DNA of 64,000 bases from the NCBI GenBank assembly GCA_963734545.1, contig CAVTHO010000003.1:352001-416000 (forward strand), in the 5' to 3' direction. The notes beneath the pieces are model-generated. The model did not search any database. It was given only the letters and a program-made list of their open reading frames with translations, and was not told the origin of the DNA. Origin of the DNA: an uncultured Spirochaetota bacterium (lineage in GTDB: Bacteria; Spirochaetota; Spirochaetia; SZUA-6; Fen-1364). Positions 8,601 to 56,151 of the stretch are shown in pieces. Both the position numbers and the translations under genes were made by a program. Positions within the stretch are counted from its first letter, which is position 1. Each line of letters opens with the position of its first letter.

Positions 8601-11600
8601 CGGGCACCGCGGTGGACGCGCTGCAGCTTCGCAGGGACGAGTTCAACTCTCCGGAGGGGATGACGGAGGTCCAGTGGAAGGCCAGCCTCCGGCGCGCGGT
8701 CGGCCAGCAGATCGTAACGATCATTGCCGCGCGCTCGCAGGGGCTCCCTGATCCCAATTTCTGGAACGTGTTCGCCTACCCCATGATCATCCGGGCCGGC
8801 GCGGACCTGTACAGCCAGTACACCTCTGACAACGTCTTCAAGGCCAAAATCGACCTTGCCCTGGACACCCAGGGAAGGATCCTGATCAGCGGCGAGGCCG
8901 TGTTCGCCAACAGCCTGAGCCTCGGCCTCCGGCTGTACGCCAACCTGAGTCCCGTGATCGACGGTTCGGTCAACAAGGGCGCAAAGGTGACCATTCTGTT
9001 CCTGTCAGATTTCCCCTCCGGCGCAGGCGTCACTCCCATATTCAGCGTGTACGGCAGGGCCGATTTCTTCTTCAGCAGGACCGATGGCACGCCGGTCACT
9101 GCCACGAACAAGGCCGACCAGTTCGAGATCTTCCTCGCCGGCGCTGCGACCATGAACGTGCTGGACCAGTTCTCGGTCACGTACAGCGGCAGCCTCGGCC
9201 TGGCTTTCTCGACCACCGGCTTCGTCATGAAAGTCAATGCCCAGGCCAATGTGTCGTATCTCGGAAACATCGGCACCGCCGCCGGGGAGCTTCACGTCCA
9301 GAAAGTCTCGGGAAGCTCGCTGGAGATCTGGGGCGCCTTCCTCATGACCGCGGATCTCTCTGCCATGGAGCAGTCAGGTATCTACGCTTCCGGGCTGGTG
9401 TTCTTCGCGCTGAACACGACAAGCGCGGCCAAATCTGTCACCCTGACCCTGCCGGCTACTCCGCCTGCCACGCCGACCGCCTATCCCCTGGACCTCAAGC
9501 CGACATCCTTCGGTCTCCTGATAGACGGCAAGGCTGTCATCAAGCTCCCGAAAAGCTCACCCAGTGACCCGGGCCTCTTTTCCATGACCGCGGTCCTGGT
9601 CGTGGACATCGATACGTCAGGCCTGCGGATATTTGCGGAGGGATCCATGACCCTCGGGTCCCCGGGAGTGGACCCGCTCCTGTCGTTCTCGTTCAACGGC
9701 CTGCTGGTGACGAACAGCCAGGGCATCGCGGCCCGGCTGACGCTCATCTATACGAACAACGCAATTCCTGGAGTCGGGCTGAATGCCCGGTTCCACCTCG
9801 TGTTGAATACAACGGGCCTGGCTGTTCAGTACCAGATCCCCACGCTTCCGACCGGTGATCAGATTCCGTTTGTCACGGGACCGAACCCTGCAGACCCGAC
9901 CGGTCCGGAGATACTGCTGGAGGGCCCCGGCCGCACCATCTCGATTCCCGGCGGACCGCCTGTCCTCGGGGACGGCATCGCGAACTGGGTTCCTACGGCG
10001 GAGAATGCCGGAAAACCATACGCGGTGATATTCGGCGGCGGCTCCCTGAGCCTGCTGGGCACCTTCACGCTGGACGGCGCGCTCCTCCTTATCCTTTCTC
10101 CCGCTGAGCTCGCCATGAGCGTGGACATGAGCTTGAGCCTGGCGGATCTGGGCACGGTGAATGCCACGGGCACCCTGCTGATCGACTCCAGCGGCGTGGC
10201 CGGCGCTCTGTCCATCGGAGTCCAGGCGGGAGTATTCAAGTCCGGCCCCCAGTTCAGCCTGTCCGGTGTGGCATTCTTCATGGTCAATACGCGCGCCAGC
10301 CCTGTGCCTGCCCTCCATCTTCCGGCAGGTCCTTACGCGCAGGTCGGAATAACAGGCACCCTGATCCTCGGCCTGGCATCCGGCACGAGCTTCACCATGG
10401 TGGGCAACTTCGTGCTCACCACCACTGCCACGGAAACAGCGGTCAGCGCCTCCTCCACGCTGACCGCTGAGCTGGGCGGGGTCACCCTCTTCTCCATGCA
10501 GGCGGACGGCGCCCTGGTAATGAGCGCGAATGGGATCGCGGCCAGAATCGTGCTGGGCTCTGGAGGCTCGAGCGGACTGAGTGGAGACGGCTTTACGTTC
10601 ACCGGATACTTCACCCTGGAGGTGAACACGACCACGCAGGCGGTCGCAGAGATCAACGCGGTGACTGTGAATCTGGCTCCAGGGCCGTACGTGCGCGTGC
10701 GCATCGGCGGGGACCCGGCGGTGTCGGGCTCCACGGCCACGCTTGCCCTCTCTGAGGCCGGGGACAACAGCATTGGGATGAACGGGAGGTTCGACCTGGA
10801 GATGAGCCCTGCCGGGCTCGCGGTGACAGCCAGCGCCACGCTCTTCATGAAGCTGGGAGGAGCTACCCTGTTCTCCCTGAATGCAAATGGCGCCCTCCTT
10901 GTCACAGCGGACGGCATTGCCGCGAAGCTCTCCCTCGGAACCGGGCAGCTCGAGCACTGCTGCCGCCAACGGCTTCTCGTTCGCAGGGTATTTCACCCTC
11001 GAGCTGAACACAGGCATCCAGCGGGTTACGAAGATCAACGACGTCGTCGTGAACCTTGAACCCGGACCGTATGTGCGGCTGACAATCGGCGGTGACCCCG
11101 CCGTTGCAGGCTCCGAGGCCGTGCTGCAGCTCATTCTCGGGGGAGCCAGCGGCTTCCGCCTGGAAGGCTCCTTTGTTCTGGCGCTCAGCTCCTCCGGTAT
11201 CGCGGTCAGCGCCACCACGTCCCTGGTGGCGGTAGTAGCGGGCCAGCCCCTTCTGACTGTCGACGCAAGCGGCGCCCTTCTGATCAGCAGCGCAGGCATC
11301 GCGGCGAAAATAAGCTTGAGCGCGGGGTCGATCAGCGGCTCGTCCTATGAGTTCACAGCCGCCGCAGGCGCGGCATTCACCCTTTCGATCAATACCACCG
11401 CAGCGGCCGTGGACATCATCAACAACGTGACAGTGGACCTGCCGGCAGGTCCGTATGCATATCTGGCCGTGAGCGGCGCGGTGAGTCTTCCTGCCGCGGC
11501 AGGGCTCTCGCTTTCCGGCGTATTCTCCATCTCGGCCAGCCCGGCCGGACTGGAGATCTTTGCAGACGCCTCGCTCGCCTTTGGACCGAGCATCGCTGCG

Positions 11601-48539: not shown

Positions 48540-49669
48540 CTAGATATAGTTCAGCCCATAGCCCGGCAGCGGCAGAGGGAATAACCGGGCAAGGATTTCC
48601 CGCAGAGTCCCGTCCTCTGCCGCGGGCGGCGTATGCGCGACCGAGCCGAACACGAGGGCGGTGAGATCTGCGTCATCGGCAATGGCGAGCTCCGCACCCT
48701 TGTATCGGAAAACAACAGCCGGCCCGCACTGGATCGTAAGCCCTGCGCGTTCCCCCTGGGTCAGCCTGGAAGCGATGTGCCCTTCGATTGCTCCGAAGAA
48801 ACCCGCCCGGTCGAGGATCTTCATCGTCCCGTGGAATCCGCGCGGAGACGAGGAAAGGTCCCCGGCATGGGCGAGGGTTTCCATTTCAAGGTCCGTTGCA
48901 GTTGTCTCGATCTCCACGCCGGGGCGCCGGTGGCGGCACAAATCGCCGGCAGCGCGGCAAGGAGCGCGTGCCGGGACCCGGCAATTTCAAGCGCCTTGAG
49001 AACTCTTTCTCCGCTCCGCTGCTCGGGCCCCGTGGTGCACACGTAAGCGGCGAGCTTCTGCCCCAGCCGGCACACCCATGTGCGTCCGGGACGTGCGTGC
49101 AGCGAGCGCGACTCCAGGAGAGTCCGCATCTCCTCCATGCCGCGCTCGAACCGCACCGGTTCGGCCTGATACAGCGCAGCCATTTCAGGGATGTCACGGC
49201 CGGTCCATTCAGCCACGTCGCATCCCAGCCGGGGCAGGCTGCTGGTCTCTTCCACGCGCACGGTCCGCCAGAGTCCGGCGTCCACGCAGCCCATGCGCCT
49301 GTACAGCCCCCGGCCGCCGGAAACAAGGACAGCTACGGCTCCCTGCTCCGCTGACCGGGCAACCACCGCTTCCACCACGCGCCCTGCCATGCCCTGCCCG
49401 CGAAACTCCTCGAGGGTGCACACCGCTCCGACGAGCCCCACCCTGATCTTCGTTCCCGCAAGGCAGAGGTCACGCAGGACGCCGCCGGCCAGCGCCACCG
49501 GTCTTCCCTCGTCGAGCATGATCTGCAGGTTCTCCAGATTGTCCGCATCAAAGAGCGTGGGAAAGGACGTTCCCATGTCCGCATCGTCTCCGCGGCGGAA
49601 AACGGTGTTTGCAAGGCGGACCACCGCGTCCAGCTCGGCGGGCAGTACCGCCCTCGGTCCCTCGATCAT
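48540..49669 (-). CDS. GNAT acetyltransferase (Eis-like); frameshift at ~48922
   Basis: VGAVCTLEEFRGQGMA, LYRRMG; C-terminal part in ORF 48540-48941. Confidence 0.75.
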
Positions 49670-49770
49670 GGCGCCACGGTACGGGGTATTCCCCGAACGG
49701 GTACTCCCGTACTCCTTTGATTCATACTCCCACTATACACGGGCATGCGCGGACATGCAAAATAATCTCC

Positions 49771-50655
49771 ATGAAAAGGCGACCGACATCAAAAGACTGG
49801 CTCCCCCTCGCGCGCGCGGACGGGCCGGCCGTCGAGGCGCCCACCGGCGAAGCGTTTCGCACCGAGTGGATCGATTTCGACAGGGGCATCCGGGTCGGCA
49901 ACCTCGAGCCTCACGAGCGCATCACGCGCATTCTCAAGTTCCGCCTGGAAGAAGAGTACGGCACCGGATTCGTGACCGACCGGTGGGGGCGGGGCGTCTA
50001 TTGGCAATGGATCTGCTGGGTGCCCCGGGCGGATCGTGATGCCAAGCCCCTTTCGAGCAGCGTGAACTTCGGCTGCGCAAAGCTCTTCATATCGCAGGAC
50101 CGCCCCGCACGGGTGTTCCAGTGCGGGCTCCAGGTGGAGCGCGGCGCCGAATCCGCGTCGCGGTACTCCGCGGATTCCGCGTCGCGGTACTCCGCGGATT
50201 CCGGCGAAGGAGAGGTGGTGCTCCAGGACGACTGGGACTGGCACCGGCTCATGCGGCAGTGCGCGGCGAAAACGCCGCTGGACGACGAGCTTCACCGGCT
50301 GGTACGGAAGGAAGGATTCGTGGCCCGTATCTGGGGATGGCCGGGAGCGCCTTCATTCACCGCTGCAAATTACCGGTCGGCGGCCCAGATCCGGCAGGCC
50401 GCGCGGAAGGCCCCCCGGGACCGGTGGGCGGGTTTCCAGCTCTACTATCCAATGCCCGAGCCGGAAGTGCGCGCCACCGGGGGCTACGATTTCGTGCAGG
50501 CGATCATGGGTGCCTTTTCCGAGGTGATTCCCGCCATGAACCTCTGCATGCAGGTCACATTGGCTCCGGCACGCCCGCTCAGCGCGCCCGGTCCCGGATC
50601 GGCGACTCCTTCAGGAACAGCGCGAGGCAGACAGCGGCCAGCGTCAGGGCGATGA
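49771..50655 (+). CDS. Hypothetical Trp-rich protein carrying an in-frame hairpin duplication
   Basis: Coherent ORF (DRWGRGVYWQWICW, DWDWHR); SASRYSAD x2 at 50152-50199. Confidence 0.65.
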   Translation: MKRRPTSKDWLPLARADGPAVEAPTGEAFRTEWIDFDRGIRVGNLEPHERITRILKFRLEEEYGTGFVTDRWGRGVYWQWICWVPRADRDAKPLSSSVNFGCAKLFISQDRPARVFQCGLQVERGAESASRYSADSASRYSADSGEGEVVLQDDWDWHRLMRQCAAKTPLDDELHRLVRKEGFVARIWGWPGAPSFTAANYRSAAQIRQAARKAPRDRWAGFQLYYPMPEPEVRATGGYDFVQAIMGAFSEVIPAMNLCMQVTLAPARPLSAPGPGSATPSGTARGRQRPASGR

Positions 50656-51799: not shown

Positions 51800-51862
51800 C
51801 TGGCCCTCCTCTGTCAAAAACCCACTATATAAGCGCGTGTTCCCGGTATCAAGGAAACAACT

Positions 51863-53042
51863 TCACGTGCGCGTCGCGACGGAGCGTTTCACCATGGCGA
51901 CGATCGCAAGGGAGAGCACGACAAGCACAAGGGTGAGGCCGAGATAGAACCAGAACCCTCCGCGCAGGCCGATGCTTTCCGCGACGACTGCCATGAGGAA
52001 CGGGAAGGTGAATGAGCCCAGACCGCCTCCGGTCGCGACGGTCCCCACCGCAAATCCGCTCTTGAAGTAGCGGCCGACGATGGTCATGACGAGCGGGTAG
52101 AGCGCGGACAGGCCGAGTCCCGTCAGGAAGACTCCCACTGCCACCGCGGCGGTGGAGCTCACCACGAGAACAAACCCCAGCGCGACCGCGGACAGCAGGG
52201 AGAGACCCAGCACCAGGTATTCCTGGCGGGTGCCCCGGTAGAGCACCGAGACTCCGAGCCGGCCGGCGAAAGATACCCAGCCAGAAAAGCGAAACGGAGA
52301 AGGCGCCCGTGGAGGTGCTGGTTGCGAGCACCTTCACGAAATACTCTGAAACCCACGTGGAGACACCGAGCTCCGCTCCCACGTAGAGGAGCAGGAAGAG
52401 CGTCAGGAGGAGCAGGACGGGGCTGCGCAGGAGCCGGAGCCCGTGTCTCTGTCCATGTTCGTCCTCCTGGGCGAGCCGCGGGAACCTGGCCGTGCCGAAG
52501 AGAAGCGCCATGAGGGCAATCGGCCCGGCCGCGGCCAGGAAAACGACCGTCCCCCGAATGCCCAGGCTCATGAGAATGCCCACGGCGGCCGGTCCCACGA
52601 TTGCTCCCACGGAAAAGGCCGCATGCATGAGGTTCATGAGCCTGCTCTGGCCCTTCCGCTCCATGTGGATGACCTCGAGATTGGTCACCACCTCGATCGT
52701 GCCCTGTCCGAGCCCGATCATCAGGTTCAGCGCCAGATTGAGCCACGGTGAACGCCACCGCATGAAGAAGAGCATGCAGACCGCAATGAGCAGCAGGCCG
52801 GTGACCAGCACTGTCCGTGGGGAGAACCTCTGCACGAGAAAGCCGCAGAGGAATGTCGAAAGGAAGTAGCCGATGGCGCTGGCAGCCAGCACGACCCCGG
52901 TGAGGGTGTACGACCAGTGGAACGTCCGGATGATCTGGGGGAGCGCCGCACCGATTATGGTGAAGAGGATCCCGAAAATCACGAAGCCGGCAAGGAAGAG
53001 GACATACAGGCGCCGTGTCTCGCGGTTGAGTGACTGCATCAT
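51863..53042 (-). CDS. MFS transporter (FucP/TsgA-like); frameshift at ~52270
   Basis: IGAALPQI, MNLMHAAFSVGAIVGP, LYVGAE; C-terminus in ORF 51863-52246. Confidence 0.85.
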
Positions 53043-53206
53043 ACGTGTGATGTCTATCTATAGAGGATCGCATCGCTCTGGTCAAGACATCGCGGTATTC
53101 CGCGGATTGAGCGCCTGCCGACATCGTCGTATTGTGACTTCGCCGTTTTTGTGCTATATCCGGAACTGCATCTCCACTGACACACCGAAAAGCCCGGAGC
53201 CTGATT

Positions 53207-54103
53207 GTGACGTCCCGATCCATTGCGATCATCTTGTGCGCGACAACTCTCGCCCTGCTCCTCGGAGCATGTCCCGCGCACGCGCAAGCTGCTGCGTCAG
53301 GCGTCACTATTGATGCCACGAGCGCGGCCACAGGCACGGATGCCGTTACGTCCGCGTCGGCAGCGGGGACTCGATCCGGCAGCGGCCGTGCCGCGCTCGA
53401 CCTTGCGAGCATTCTGATGGGCCCCGGGTTCATTCTCGCGTGGGTCCTTTTCGCGCTCGGATGCGCATGGCGCGTCATCCAGTTCAGCCGCCTGACCCGG
53501 CTCGCGCAGCACACGCCGGCCGCCGGCGTGCAGCTCACCGCTCCCCGTCCGGAGATTGCTGATCGGGAGTTCCTGCTCAGGGGCGAGTCCTGGCTGGGCC
53601 GACTTTTCTCACGTTATCGAAGATGGGAACGGGGAACCGTTTTCGGCGGCCACCCCGTGATGGCAAGGGTGAGCCTCGTGTTTCACTTGCTTCTTTTCCT
53701 GGTTCCGCTGCTTCTTCCCGCGCACAACAACCTTCTCTCCCGGGCCCTTGGCGTGGGCCTGCCTTCCCTTCCGGCGCCACTACTGGACATGCTGACGCTC
53801 GTCTTTCTGGTCATCGGCGGGTTTTTCCTCGCGCGCAGGATCCTTGTTCCGCGCGTCAGGATCCTCAGTACCCTGGGGGACTACGCCATCCTTCTGCTCG
53901 TTGTGGCGCCGTTCATCACCGCTTACGCGGCCCATCACCGATGGCTCGACTATCACGCGCTTCTCATGGCGCACACGTTCGTCGGGGAAGCGCTGATTGC
54001 CGCCATTCCGTTCACCAAGCTGGGTCATATGCCCTTCCTGATATTCTCGCGCTTCTTCACGGCCTCCGAGTACTCGTTGAAGACGGCGGGCCGCAGGTGG
54101 TAG
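53207..54103 (+). CDS. NarI/HmcE/TmcC-like membrane cytochrome b subunit with an exported N-terminal extension
   Basis: HP....SLVFH, PAH, MAH, IPFTKLGH histidine pattern in TM helices; signal-like N-terminus. Confidence 0.7.
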   Translation: MTSRSIAIILCATTLALLLGACPAHAQAAASGVTIDATSAATGTDAVTSASAAGTRSGSGRAALDLASILMGPGFILAWVLFALGCAWRVIQFSRLTRLAQHTPAAGVQLTAPRPEIADREFLLRGESWLGRLFSRYRRWERGTVFGGHPVMARVSLVFHLLLFLVPLLLPAHNNLLSRALGVGLPSLPAPLLDMLTLVFLVIGGFFLARRILVPRVRILSTLGDYAILLLVVAPFITAYAAHHRWLDYHALLMAHTFVGEALIAAIPFTKLGHMPFLIFSRFFTASEYSLKTAGRRW

Positions 54104-54105
54104 CA

Positions 54106-54483
54106 ATGGACGCACGGACCCGGGAGAGGATCGCCAGGATCGTCGCGAAAAAGGAGGGATTGATCAGGCTCTCCCTGCAGGCATGCGCGCACTGCGCCTT
54201 CTGCGCGGAGAGCTGCTTCATGTACCGGCAGAGCGGCGGCGATCCCACCTGCACTCCCTCCTACAAGGCAATCAATTCCATCGGGAAGATCTGGCGGAAG
54301 AAAGGGAAGCTGTCAGAGGCGGAATATGCGCGGATCAGGGAACTTGCGTGGGACAAATGCGTGCTGTGCATGCGCTGCTACTGCCCGGTCGGCATCAACA
54401 TCCCGTCCCTGATCGCCGCGGCGCGCGGCGCGTGCAGGGAACAAGGCGTGCTGCGCACCTATGACGCAAAGAGGAACGCCTGA
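54106..54483 (+). CDS. 2x[4Fe-4S] dicluster protein (HdrC / HmcF N-terminal-like)
   Basis: CAHCAFCAESC and CVLCMRCYCPVGI. Confidence 0.8.
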   Translation: MDARTRERIARIVAKKEGLIRLSLQACAHCAFCAESCFMYRQSGGDPTCTPSYKAINSIGKIWRKKGKLSEAEYARIRELAWDKCVLCMRCYCPVGINIPSLIAAARGACREQGVLRTYDAKRNA

Positions 54484-54502
54484 GGGCGGAAGCGAGGAAG
54501 AC

Positions 54503-55228
54503 ATGGTCAAGGCCACACGGAAGCCATTGGAAGAGATATTCGGCATGGTGAAGGGATTCGAGCGCGTGCTGGTTGTCGGCTGCGGCGGATGCACGTCGGT
54601 GTGCCTCGCCGGCGGACAGCGGGAGGTCCTTGCCCTTGCGGATGAGCTTGCCGAATGCGCGCGTCACGAACGGGTGCCCCAGCAGTACGCGTGCTTCGTG
54701 ACGGAGCGCCAGTGCAACCGCGAGTTTCTGGATGACATCGAGGAGCGGGTGGAAAACTGCGACTGCCTGCTGTCCCTGGCCTGCGGCGCGGGCGCCGGCC
54801 TGATGGCGGACGTGTATGCGGCCGTTCCGGTTTTCCCCGCCCTCAATACGATGTTCCTCGGCGCGGACCTGGATGTGGGCCTGTACGAAGAGAGGTGCCG
54901 CACCTGCGGCCAATGCGTGCTGGGTGACACCGGGGGAATCTGCCCGGTGACGCGCTGCTCCAAAGGCTCGCTGAACGGCCCCTGCGGCGGGACGCAGCAG
55001 GACGGCTCCTGCGAGCTGGGGGACGGCATCCACTGCGCGTGGAACGACATCTATGATCGACTGAAAGGACAGGGAAGGCTGGAAAGCATGCAGGTCATCC
55101 GGCCGCCCATGGACTGGATGGAGAAGGGCCCCCGAACCCTTGTCCAGCGGGGCTTCGAAGCCAGGTACGCCAAAAAGCCCGCCGGAATGCCGCCAGGAGC
55201 GGCCGCGGAAAAGGCGCGGCTGCCGTGA
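54503..55228 (+). CDS. metV: Methylene-THF reductase small subunit MetV
   Basis: GCGGCTSVCLAGG, ERQC, ACGAG, CRTCGQC, CPVTRCSKGSLNGPCGG, CAW. Confidence 0.85.
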   Translation: MVKATRKPLEEIFGMVKGFERVLVVGCGGCTSVCLAGGQREVLALADELAECARHERVPQQYACFVTERQCNREFLDDIEERVENCDCLLSLACGAGAGLMADVYAAVPVFPALNTMFLGADLDVGLYEERCRTCGQCVLGDTGGICPVTRCSKGSLNGPCGGTQQDGSCELGDGIHCAWNDIYDRLKGQGRLESMQVIRPPMDWMEKGPRTLVQRGFEARYAKKPAGMPPGAAAEKARLP

Positions 55229-56151
55229 GGTCGGGCAGCAATCTGGAAAAGGTCCTTGCCGCGGGTCACTTCGCCGTCACGGCGGAGCTGGGCCCTCCCG
55301 CGGGAGCCGACACCGAGCCGGTGCGGCTGAAAGCGGAGCTCCTGCGCGGCGCCGTGGATGCCGTGAACGTGACGGACAACCAGACGGCGGTCGTCCGCAT
55401 GTCCAGCATTGCCGTCTCATCGCTTCTCGTGCAGATGGGCGTCGAGCCGGTGATGCAGATGGTCTGCCGCGACAGGAATCGCATCGCCATGCAGAGCGAC
55501 ATATTCGGGGCCTCCGCGCTCGGCATCCGCAACCTCACCTGCCTGTCGGGAGACCACCAGAGCTTCGGGAACCAGGCCGGCGCGAAAAAGGTCTATGATA
55601 TCGACTCGGTGCAGCTCGTCGCCATGGTGAAGCGTCTTCGGGACGAGAAGAAGGTCCTGGACAGCGACGAGGAGATCGCCGGCAGCGTGCCGATGTTCAT
55701 CGGCGTGGCGGCCAACCCGTTCGCCCAGCCGTACGAGTTTCGCGCGCTCCGGCTGGCCAAGAAGGTGGCGGCGGGCGCGGACTACGTGCAGACCCAGTGC
55801 GTGTTCGACGTGCCCCGTTTCGCGGAGTGGATGAAGGCCGTGCGCGACCTGGGGCTGCACACCCGGTGCGGAATCCTTGCCGGGGTGACGCCGCTGAAGT
55901 CCGCGGGCATGACCCGCTACATGGCGGAAAGCGTGCCGGGTATCAGCATTCCGGAGCAGATCGTGAAACGGATGAGCGACGCGCCCCGCGGCAAGGCCGC
56001 GGAAACAGGGCTGCAGATCTGCCGGGAAATCATCGAGGAATTGCGCTCGATCGAGGGAGTCGCCGGCATCCATATCATGGCGGTCGAATGGGAGCAGAAG
56101 GTCCGCGAGATCGTGGCAGGGGCCGGTCTTCTCCCGCGGCCACTGGTATAG
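55225..56151 (+). CDS. metF: Methylene-THF reductase MetF
   Basis: VTAELGPP, NVTDNQ, CRDRNRIAMQS, LSGDH, KKVAAGADYVQTQ; GTGA coupling. Confidence 0.9.
   Translation: MRSGSNLEKVLAAGHFAVTAELGPPAGADTEPVRLKAELLRGAVDAVNVTDNQTAVVRMSSIAVSSLLVQMGVEPVMQMVCRDRNRIAMQSDIFGASALGIRNLTCLSGDHQSFGNQAGAKKVYDIDSVQLVAMVKRLRDEKKVLDSDEEIAGSVPMFIGVAANPFAQPYEFRALRLAKKVAAGADYVQTQCVFDVPRFAEWMKAVRDLGLHTRCGILAGVTPLKSAGMTRYMAESVPGISIPEQIVKRMSDAPRGKAAETGLQICREIIEELRSIEGVAGIHIMAVEWEQKVREIVAGAGLLPRPLV

Follow-up and report, generated by a model that had tools for sequence, protein, structure and literature searches.

The type II cytochrome c3 complex of Desulfovibrio vulgaris, TmcABCD, carries electrons across the membrane between the periplasmic cytochrome pool and a cytoplasmic acceptor. 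Here we compare this and other described systems with a four-gene cluster predicted to encode a methylene-tetrahydrofolate reductase (MTHFR) together with a membrane cytochrome. The cluster lies at positions 53207 to 56151 of the forward strand of a 64,000-nucleotide stretch of DNA from an uncultured Spirochaetota bacterium (GenBank assembly GCA_963734545.1, contig CAVTHO010000003.1, positions 352,001 to 416,000); we refer to this whole stretch as the window. Beside the MTHFR subunits MetV and MetF, the cluster encodes a predicted cytochrome b and a small iron-sulfur (FeS) protein. We find that these genes stay together in distant genomes, and that a tetrahaem cytochrome c3, which belonged to the unit ancestrally, has been lost from the copy in the window.

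Four types of MTHFR, none of them cytochrome-containing, are distinguished in the accessible part of a review of these enzymes (PMC8760232), which also places the reduction of methylene-tetrahydrofolate (methylene-THF) at -200 mV and describes its coupling to the membrane as debated since 1977. The best prior evidence for a membrane link, in the portion of the report available to us (PMC9430772), comes from Sporomusa ovata, in which part of the MetVF-HdrCBA-MvhD complex is loosely associated with membranes that carry out H2-dependent methylene-THF reduction, with no anchor identified and, according to the authors, no transmembrane helix among its subunits. The same portion calls the chain bidirectional, and proposes potential-assisted export of methyl-THF electrons for growth on methanol. 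Elsewhere, the available text of Murali et al. contains only metF-HdrABC (PMC10553843), and that on 'Ca. Contubernalis alkaliaceticus' reports a metVF copy adjoining a [NiFe] hydrogenase whose small subunit is of the c3 type (PMC10608574). A figure legend in the Desulfobacterium autotrophicum genome paper names a 'MetF-ABC' that is unexplained in the text searched (PMC2702500), and a Rectinema paper was set aside, as the mentions of cytochrome c3 in its accessible part belong to the Desulfobacterium partner (PMC6052044). The pairing of metVF and a cytochrome b turned up nowhere in the literature searched, the coverage of which excluded subscription journals.

The four genes in the window are co-oriented. 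The first and second are 2 nt apart and the second and third 19 nt apart, whereas the last two overlap by 4 nt (GTGA), the GTG start of metF lying over the stop of metV. A purine-rich, Shine-Dalgarno-like stretch precedes each start (GGAG, AGGTGG, GAGGAAG), with the GGAG positioned 7 nt ahead of the GTG start of the cytochrome b gene. An earlier annotation made from the letters of the window (hereafter the original prediction) had described the same orientation and spacing, and re-reading the sequence returned identical values; the identities that it assigned to the four genes likewise agree with our family scans (TmcC/HmcE-like, Fer4_8, PF12225 and PF02219).

The first gene (53207..54103, + strand) encodes a predicted NarI/TmcC/HmcE-type dihaem cytochrome b of 298 amino acids. 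Among NCBIfam models, it matches TmcC (2.2e-42, 145 bits, cut-off 240) and HmcE (1.7e-35, 122.7 bits, cut-off 275), with a weak match to Pfam NarI (E 0.0036, 17.4 bits, cut-off 22.9). Four histidines (H160, H173, H256 and H274) are invariant across 25 aligned membrane proteins with identities down to 22%, which is the count expected for two bis-His haems b. The sole solved relative by sequence is NarI (PDB 1Q16 chain C, E ~5e-5), and the top eight Foldseek matches to the AlphaFold2 model (pLDDT 75) are all NarI, each of them weak (E 7e-3 to 5e-2, TM-score 0.31-0.51). Residues 1-26 resemble an export signal ending in AHA-Q, and are followed by a disordered Ala/Ser/Thr/Gly-rich tail (residues ~27-65) and then by a helical membrane core; the model itself shows residues 21-65 as disordered, between an N-terminal helix and the helical core. 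The tail contains no CxxCH motif, and occupies the site at which relatives have a fused tetrahaem c3 domain. The gene caller's version of this protein begins at M71; orthologues of 72-83% identity retain the long form.

The second gene (54106..54483, +, internal ATG start) encodes a 125-residue protein predicted to be an HdrC-like, cytoplasmic 2x[4Fe-4S] adaptor. It scores above the Pfam cut-offs for both Fer4_8 (2.3e-8) and Fer4_17, and matches HmcF (1.6e-24) only within positions 51-153 of that 457-position profile, TmcB (1.1e-19) only within positions 21-137 of 430, and DsrK weakly (8.7e-5). Because these matches are limited to the N-terminal ~100 residues of HmcF, TmcB and DsrK, the adaptor is missing the CCG domains of those proteins. 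Eight cysteines are invariant among 23 sequences, C27, C30, C33 and C37 (CxxCxxCxxxC) and C85, C88, C91 and C93, the latter forming a CxxCxxCxCP motif of unusual spacing. The AlphaFold2 model (pLDDT 90.5) has chains I and C of the HdrC structure 5odc as its top fold matches (probability 0.99, E 0.05-0.08, TM-score 0.48).

The third gene (54503..55228, +, internal ATG start) encodes MetV, the 241-residue Fe-S/Zn subunit, which matches PF12225 above its cut-off (3.4e-33, 113.6 bits) and contains 13 cysteines invariant in the 23 sequences compared; a sequence search returned no related solved structure. The fourth (55225..56151, +, GTG start) encodes MetF, the flavin-binding catalytic subunit, of 308 residues, also above the cut-off for its family (PF02219, 2.2e-38, 132.7 bits) and 95-98% identical to the orthologues in loci L001, L053 and L054. 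Together, the adjacent MetF and MetV are predicted to form a methylene-THF reductase of the MetVF type, that is, with a type II core. Compared with L053 and L054, the window's copy is 97-98% identical in MetF, 92-94% in MetV and 72-79% in the cytochrome b.

Among described systems, TmcABCD is similar in that TmcC is the best model for the membrane subunit, the adaptor resembles the N-terminal ferredoxin of TmcB, the c3 of relatives resembles TmcA, and a role in transmembrane electron transfer may be shared. In contrast to Tmc, the adaptor lacks the HdrB-like CCG domains, we saw no TmcD, MetVF takes the place of thiol/disulfide chemistry, and the window's copy contains no cytochrome c at all and scores below the equivalog cut-offs. 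HmcABCDEF of Desulfovibrio is matched by its HmcE and the N-terminus of HmcF, and a variant locus described below has a four-c3-domain protein and an NrfD-like subunit, whereas the window lacks HmcA, HmcB, HmcC and HmcD, and its HmcF-like protein is cut to 125 residues. DsrMK(JOP) and HdrDE also join a NarI-like dihaem cytochrome b to a cytoplasmic FeS protein of the HdrC/HdrD type, although these retain CCG domains and act on the DsrC trisulfide or a heterodisulfide, features absent in the window. As in NarI, four histidines are distributed over two helices, with 18 residues separating the second pair in both proteins, although identity to NarI is only ~16%, the TM-score is low, and the partners are a small FeS protein and MetVF instead of NarGH. 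Finally, the type IV MTHFRs of Moorella thermoacetica and S. ovata (MetVF-HdrCBA-MvhD) share the MetVF core and an HdrC-type 2x[4Fe-4S] protein. No HdrA, HdrB or MvhD gene stands beside the window's metVF, the search for HdrA being confined to this neighbourhood, and the putative operon includes a gene for a protein that has both haem ligands and transmembrane helices, whereas the S. ovata enzyme is reported to have no transmembrane helix (PMC9430772).

We investigated the conservation of this linkage in a sample of 400 Spirochaetota genomes besides the window's own (401 in all). The cytochrome b was matched in 29 of the 400, with the order membrane gene-FeS gene-MetV found in 18 of these 29, and MetF came after MetV in 17 of those 18 loci. 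The 18 carrier genomes outside the window's family (f1) belong to families f41 (13), f52 (4) and f55 (1), and their loci range from 37 to 59% GC. Within the window's order, the membrane gene was present in 16 of the 24 other f1 genomes, compared with none of the 68 genomes of other families. A metagenome scan with the adaptor profile, from which the best 80 of 493 relatives were kept, placed the membrane gene directly upstream of the FeS gene in 49 of the 50 loci with at least 800 nt of upstream sequence, and MetV or MetF in 39 of the 42 loci with room for them. In each of the 19 loci flanked at both ends by 2.5 kb or more, the membrane-FeS pair was accompanied by MetV (18) and/or MetF (14). 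The metagenome loci have at least five gene orders, including b-S-c-V-F, b-S-V-F, V-b-S-F, c-V-b-S-F and F-b-S-V-c (b, cytochrome b; S, FeS adaptor; c, c3; V, MetV; F, MetF), and the flanks beyond the module differ between families. The persistence of the linkage despite this shuffling gives good support to a functional unit, as opposed to a chance grouping. The original prediction had tied MetVF to a membrane cytochrome b through the 2x[4Fe-4S] protein, and had suggested synteny as a check; the persistence of the genes together, in distant genomes and in shuffled orders, points to the same association.

We additionally noted variants of the module. In five metagenome loci (L134, L136, L144, L147 and L157), the genes for cytochrome b, FeS protein, c3 and MetV are followed by one for a BCCT-family betaine/choline/carnitine transporter, in the place of MetF, with no MetF within 3.5 kb; in L134 a DUF3786+FeS protein (10408-11220) adjoins this transporter. 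DUF3786 proteins recur beside the module in L043 (7580-8275), L133 and L175, and thus occur both in Wood-Ljungdahl clusters and in the BCCT variant. L172 (5176-11856), and similarly L174, has MetF, cytochrome b, FeS protein and MetV followed by a 551-residue protein with four c3 domains, a 231-residue protein and an NrfD-like subunit; the 551-residue protein is HmcA-like, with about 16 haems, giving an Hmc-like version of the module. A canonical MetF (PF02219, ~300 bits) lies 0.5-5 kb from the module MetF in L045 (10748-11635), L046 (10581-11447) and L049 (3079-3948). In L042 (7647-8761), what follows MetV is not MetF but a 300-residue protein that matches nothing in Pfam, together with toxin-antitoxin genes and part of a transposase, and this copy may be disrupted.

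One difference between the window's copy and most of its relatives concerns cytochrome c3. In each of the 18 non-f1 loci, a gene of ~130 codons for a tetrahaem c3 separates the FeS gene from MetV (recognised by Pfam match in 17, and by four CxxCH motifs in L048), and 26 of 99 homologues of the membrane protein have a fused N-terminal domain with four CxxCH. Because c3 is found in all of the 18 loci and as fused domains in homologues, the ancestral unit is, on gene content, a mini-Tmc with a predicted MetVF cytoplasmic end, composed of cytochrome c3, cytochrome b, a truncated TmcB-like adaptor and MetVF. In the window, by contrast with these relatives, the membrane protein has no CxxCH motif, the place of the c3 gene is the 19-nt spacer, and no match to cytochrome c3 (PF02085) was found in the genome. 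Family f1 presents a graded series, with both a fused tetrahaem domain and a separate c3 gene in L085-L089, a separate c3 gene only in L094, and neither in the window, L001/L054, L053/L084, L090-L093 and L068. In the MetV tree, the haem-less copies fall into two distinct clades with good support, indicating that c3 was lost at least twice within f1. At least eight f1 genomes retain the c3-less form, with MetF and MetV 92-98% identical among the nearest such copies. The window's copy is thus a derived form, in which all haem-c sites have been lost and the other four parts are intact.

The genomic context of the relatives bears on the direction of the reaction. In L043, L044, L133, L165 and L175 the module lies directly behind CooS-AcsB-AcsC-AcsE, and AcsB is present in 6 of the 18 non-f1 carriers, against 59 of 401 genomes across the phylum sample. 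A [NiFe] hydrogenase large subunit was found in 14 of the 18 non-f1 carriers. A second MTHFR, either a canonical MetF (~300 bits) or a bifunctional type, is encoded in 29 of 31 genomes with the module, indicating that the module MetF is not the housekeeping enzyme. Four loci (L090, L092, L093 and L109) have a co-oriented gene for a corrinoid protein just ahead of the module.

Two further features of these loci were noted. In G310 (C1:618615-621899), G328 (C12:328228-331484) and G376 (C37:22045-25316), a [NiFe] hydrogenase large-subunit gene lies ~2 kb or less from a c3 gene, a pairing that resembles the periplasmic hydrogenase-c3 systems of sulfate reducers. In one f1 clade, a conserved protein of 245-263 residues, which has a tail rich in Lys and Ala and matches no Pfam or NCBIfam family, is encoded just upstream of the corrinoid protein and module (L090:12002-12769, L091:6708-7499, L092:11690-12427, L093:11766-12551); the window's genome (G000) has a homologue of 55% identity away from the module, at C8:613580-614257.

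The window's genome (5.14 Mb in 10 contigs, 89% complete) differs from the Wood-Ljungdahl relatives in its gene content. AcsB, CooS and the large subunit of the corrinoid iron-sulfur protein were not found in it, either by profile (including PF03598) or by tblastn with the L043 proteins, at 89% completeness; within f1, the AcsB search covered this genome only. No [NiFe] hydrogenase was found in 13 f1 genomes. The genome encodes MetE beside a bifunctional homocysteine methyltransferase/MTHFR, formyltetrahydrofolate synthetase (FTHFS) and FolD, an MttB-family methyltransferase, an MtgC-like corrinoid protein, a methyl-THF:corrinoid methyltransferase scoring above its cut-off and several URO-D-family genes, as well as a ResB/CcsA pair for cytochrome c biogenesis. 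Its only open reading frame with two or more CxxCH motifs (C10:44342-45481; L069:6340-7482, - strand) encodes a 380-residue hexahaem cytochrome with weak MtrC, c3 and c7 matches, beside a methyl-accepting chemotaxis protein and PAS histidine kinases. At C6:302986-306575 (L082:5987-9573), the MttB-family gene lies beside a truncated-looking molybdopterin oxidoreductase (FdhA-like, 399 residues) and a peptide-type ABC transporter.

From these data we propose that the four genes encode a membrane-anchored, probably reversible methyl-/methylene-THF oxidoreductase, for which we infer complex formation, an electron path, a direction and an energy coupling as follows. MetF, with its flavin and folate site, and MetV, with its Fe-S clusters, would dock through the adaptor on the cytoplasmic face of the cytochrome b. 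Electrons could then pass, in either direction, between methyl-/methylene-THF, the flavin, the MetV clusters, the two [4Fe-4S] clusters, the inner haem b and the outer haem b. In most relatives the outer haem would meet the periplasmic tetrahaem c3, separate or fused, and MetVF would replace the CCG part of Tmc and Hmc. Where a periplasmic [NiFe] hydrogenase, c3 and carbon monoxide dehydrogenase/acetyl-CoA synthase (CODH/ACS) are present, electrons would move inward to methylene-THF and build proton-motive force, with protons released outside and consumed inside; in the reverse mode, the membrane potential would help to push the -200 mV electrons of methyl-THF outward. In the window's genome the enzyme would oxidise methyl-THF made by demethylation, a direction that is favoured by the lack of detectable CODH/ACS, the separate biosynthetic MTHFR and the presence of methyl-transfer parts. 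We lean slightly towards this reading, of a single membrane-bound enzyme built from the four genes and here more likely to oxidise methyl-THF derived from demethylation. The original prediction had offered either the Wood-Ljungdahl methyl branch or methyl oxidation as the role of the enzyme: the former suits the five relatives with the module behind CooS-AcsB-AcsC-AcsE and not the window's genome, for which methyl oxidation is the better fit.

A broader generalisation is possible, although we consider it doubtful as a whole. Under this proposal, the module would be a fifth, cytochrome-containing type of MTHFR, a bidirectional transmembrane wire derived from Tmc/Hmc in which MetVF has replaced the disulfide-reducing domains. 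It would conserve energy at methylene-THF reduction in H2-using acetogenic Spirochaetota, and in its haem-c-less form would let the membrane potential drive methyl oxidation, from betaine-type or other corrinoid-dependent demethylation, without NAD+ as acceptor in fermentative, non-acetogenic relatives such as this one.

Several observations weigh against the proposed oxidoreductase and its suggested direction. The cytochrome b falls below the cut-offs for the TmcC and HmcE equivalogs, and its fold match to NarI is weak. AcsB is missing from 12 of the 18 non-f1 carriers, and G310 and G328 lack MttB as well as AcsB, indicating that neither acetogenesis nor MttB-type demethylation covers all carriers. 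The methyl-transfer genes of the window's genome are all unlinked to the module. Because no c3, [NiFe] hydrogenase or menaquinone markers were found there, the outer haem is left without an evident partner; the hexahaem cytochrome was considered as a general replacement and rejected, since just 2 of 12 other f1 genomes have it. The absence of a gene from this genome is itself soft evidence, as the assembly is 89% complete and contains several apparent frameshifts.

An alternative partner for the cytochrome b would be the menaquinone pool, with which it might exchange electrons in either direction, as NarI does, and the original prediction had named such a quinone link as a possibility. Subunits of the NarI family have quinol sites, and after the loss of c3 a lipid-soluble carrier would be the simplest partner. 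However, menaquinol (about -74 mV) cannot drive the reduction of methylene-THF (-200 mV), and the outer partner in relatives is a tetrahaem c3, as in Tmc and Hmc, and not obviously a quinone. The marker genes are similarly divided: MqnA/D is present in 12 of the 18 non-f1 carriers, but the six without it include both of those in Wood-Ljungdahl clusters, and within f1 we found MqnA/D in none of 13 genomes, the window's included, and MenD above its cut-off in none of the five tested by marker genes. The window's genome does encode three MenA-like prenyltransferases, one beside a geranylgeranyl reductase, but all are below the cut-off (best 154 bits, against 277). Membranes of S. ovata reduce anthraquinone-2,6-disulfonate with methyl-THF, according to the accessible part of that study (PMC9430772). 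On balance, we regard a quinone-linked enzyme as unlikely, and for the window's genome the original suggestion is not supported.

It is improbable that the window's copy is a decaying remnant, either because no working membrane complex survived the loss of c3 or because MetVF is a soluble, ferredoxin-dependent type II enzyme. All haem-c sites are indeed gone, no partner was found and many genes in the assembly look broken, but the four frames of the module are intact, the invariant histidines and cysteines are kept, the c3-less form persists in the at least eight genomes and two clades described above, and the nearest copies still share 72-82% identity in the cytochrome b. A biosynthetic role, supplying methyl-THF for methionine with electrons from an unusual donor, would fit the Rrf2, CysK-like and MetY-like genes beside the module in L040 and L041, and the scarcity of methyl-THF sinks in genomes without CODH/ACS; it appears very improbable given the other MTHFR in nearly all carriers, which in the window's genome adjoins MetE, and given that a transmembrane haem wire would be costly for a low-flux anabolic step. 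We give least credence to the idea that this is the Wood-Ljungdahl MTHFR of an acetogen, with CODH/ACS merely missing from an 89%-complete assembly. The position of the module inside CODH/ACS clusters in five relatives, and the FTHFS and FolD genes of the window's genome, would be expected in that case, but three separate components (AcsB, CooS and the corrinoid iron-sulfur protein) were sought there by profile and tblastn and none was detected.

If the four genes do encode a membrane-anchored oxidoreductase, the putative operon is a concrete, clonable candidate for the membrane link of MTHFR. The analysis of the window contributes the haem-c-less form, which arose more than once, and shows this form in a genome that is non-acetogenic and in which no markers for quinones or hydrogenase were found; it also brings out the corrinoid and BCCT genes next to the module in relatives. 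The copies with eight, four and no haems c constitute a natural dissection series within one family, which could reveal the role of the periplasmic end of the wire. Run backwards, such a wire would explain the oxidation of methyl-THF (-200 mV) by fermenters and syntrophs. Closed genomes such as G310, if they derive from cultured strains, would make the question directly testable.

Upstream of the module, a divergent intergenic region of 164 nt (53043..53206) separates it from an MFS transporter gene on the - strand, and presumably contains the promoter. No sigma-70 consensus match was found in this region, nor any terminator-like site on the + strand inside the cluster, in consensus scans that are uninformative for this phylum. 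Two divergent MFS transporter genes lie upstream; 31 nt downstream there is a gene with a weak resemblance to GH88, and after it come genes for a cupin and for Gfo/Idh/MocA, SDR and GMC oxidoreductases. We considered the MFS transporters and the cupin as possible parts of the system and rejected them: counterparts of the window's two MFS genes were confined to close f1 relatives (L084-L088 and L094), with no match in other families at E < 1e-10.

Several genes appear split between two frames, namely the MFS transporter just upstream of the module (window 51849-53042, -) and, elsewhere in the window's genome, those for FTHFS (C5:238122-239802), CcsA (C6:209458-209959), FolP (C7:857101-857824), FolD (C5:182272-182722) and a URO-D-family protein (C5:219040-220115). 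As the assembly has just 10 contigs, these splits point to indel errors arising from long reads and not to genuine pseudogenes. Finally, an open reading frame at 49609-50655 (+) contains, at ~50150-50260, a short in-frame tandem duplication (SASRYSAD SASRYSAD), with a matching repeat on the opposite strand.

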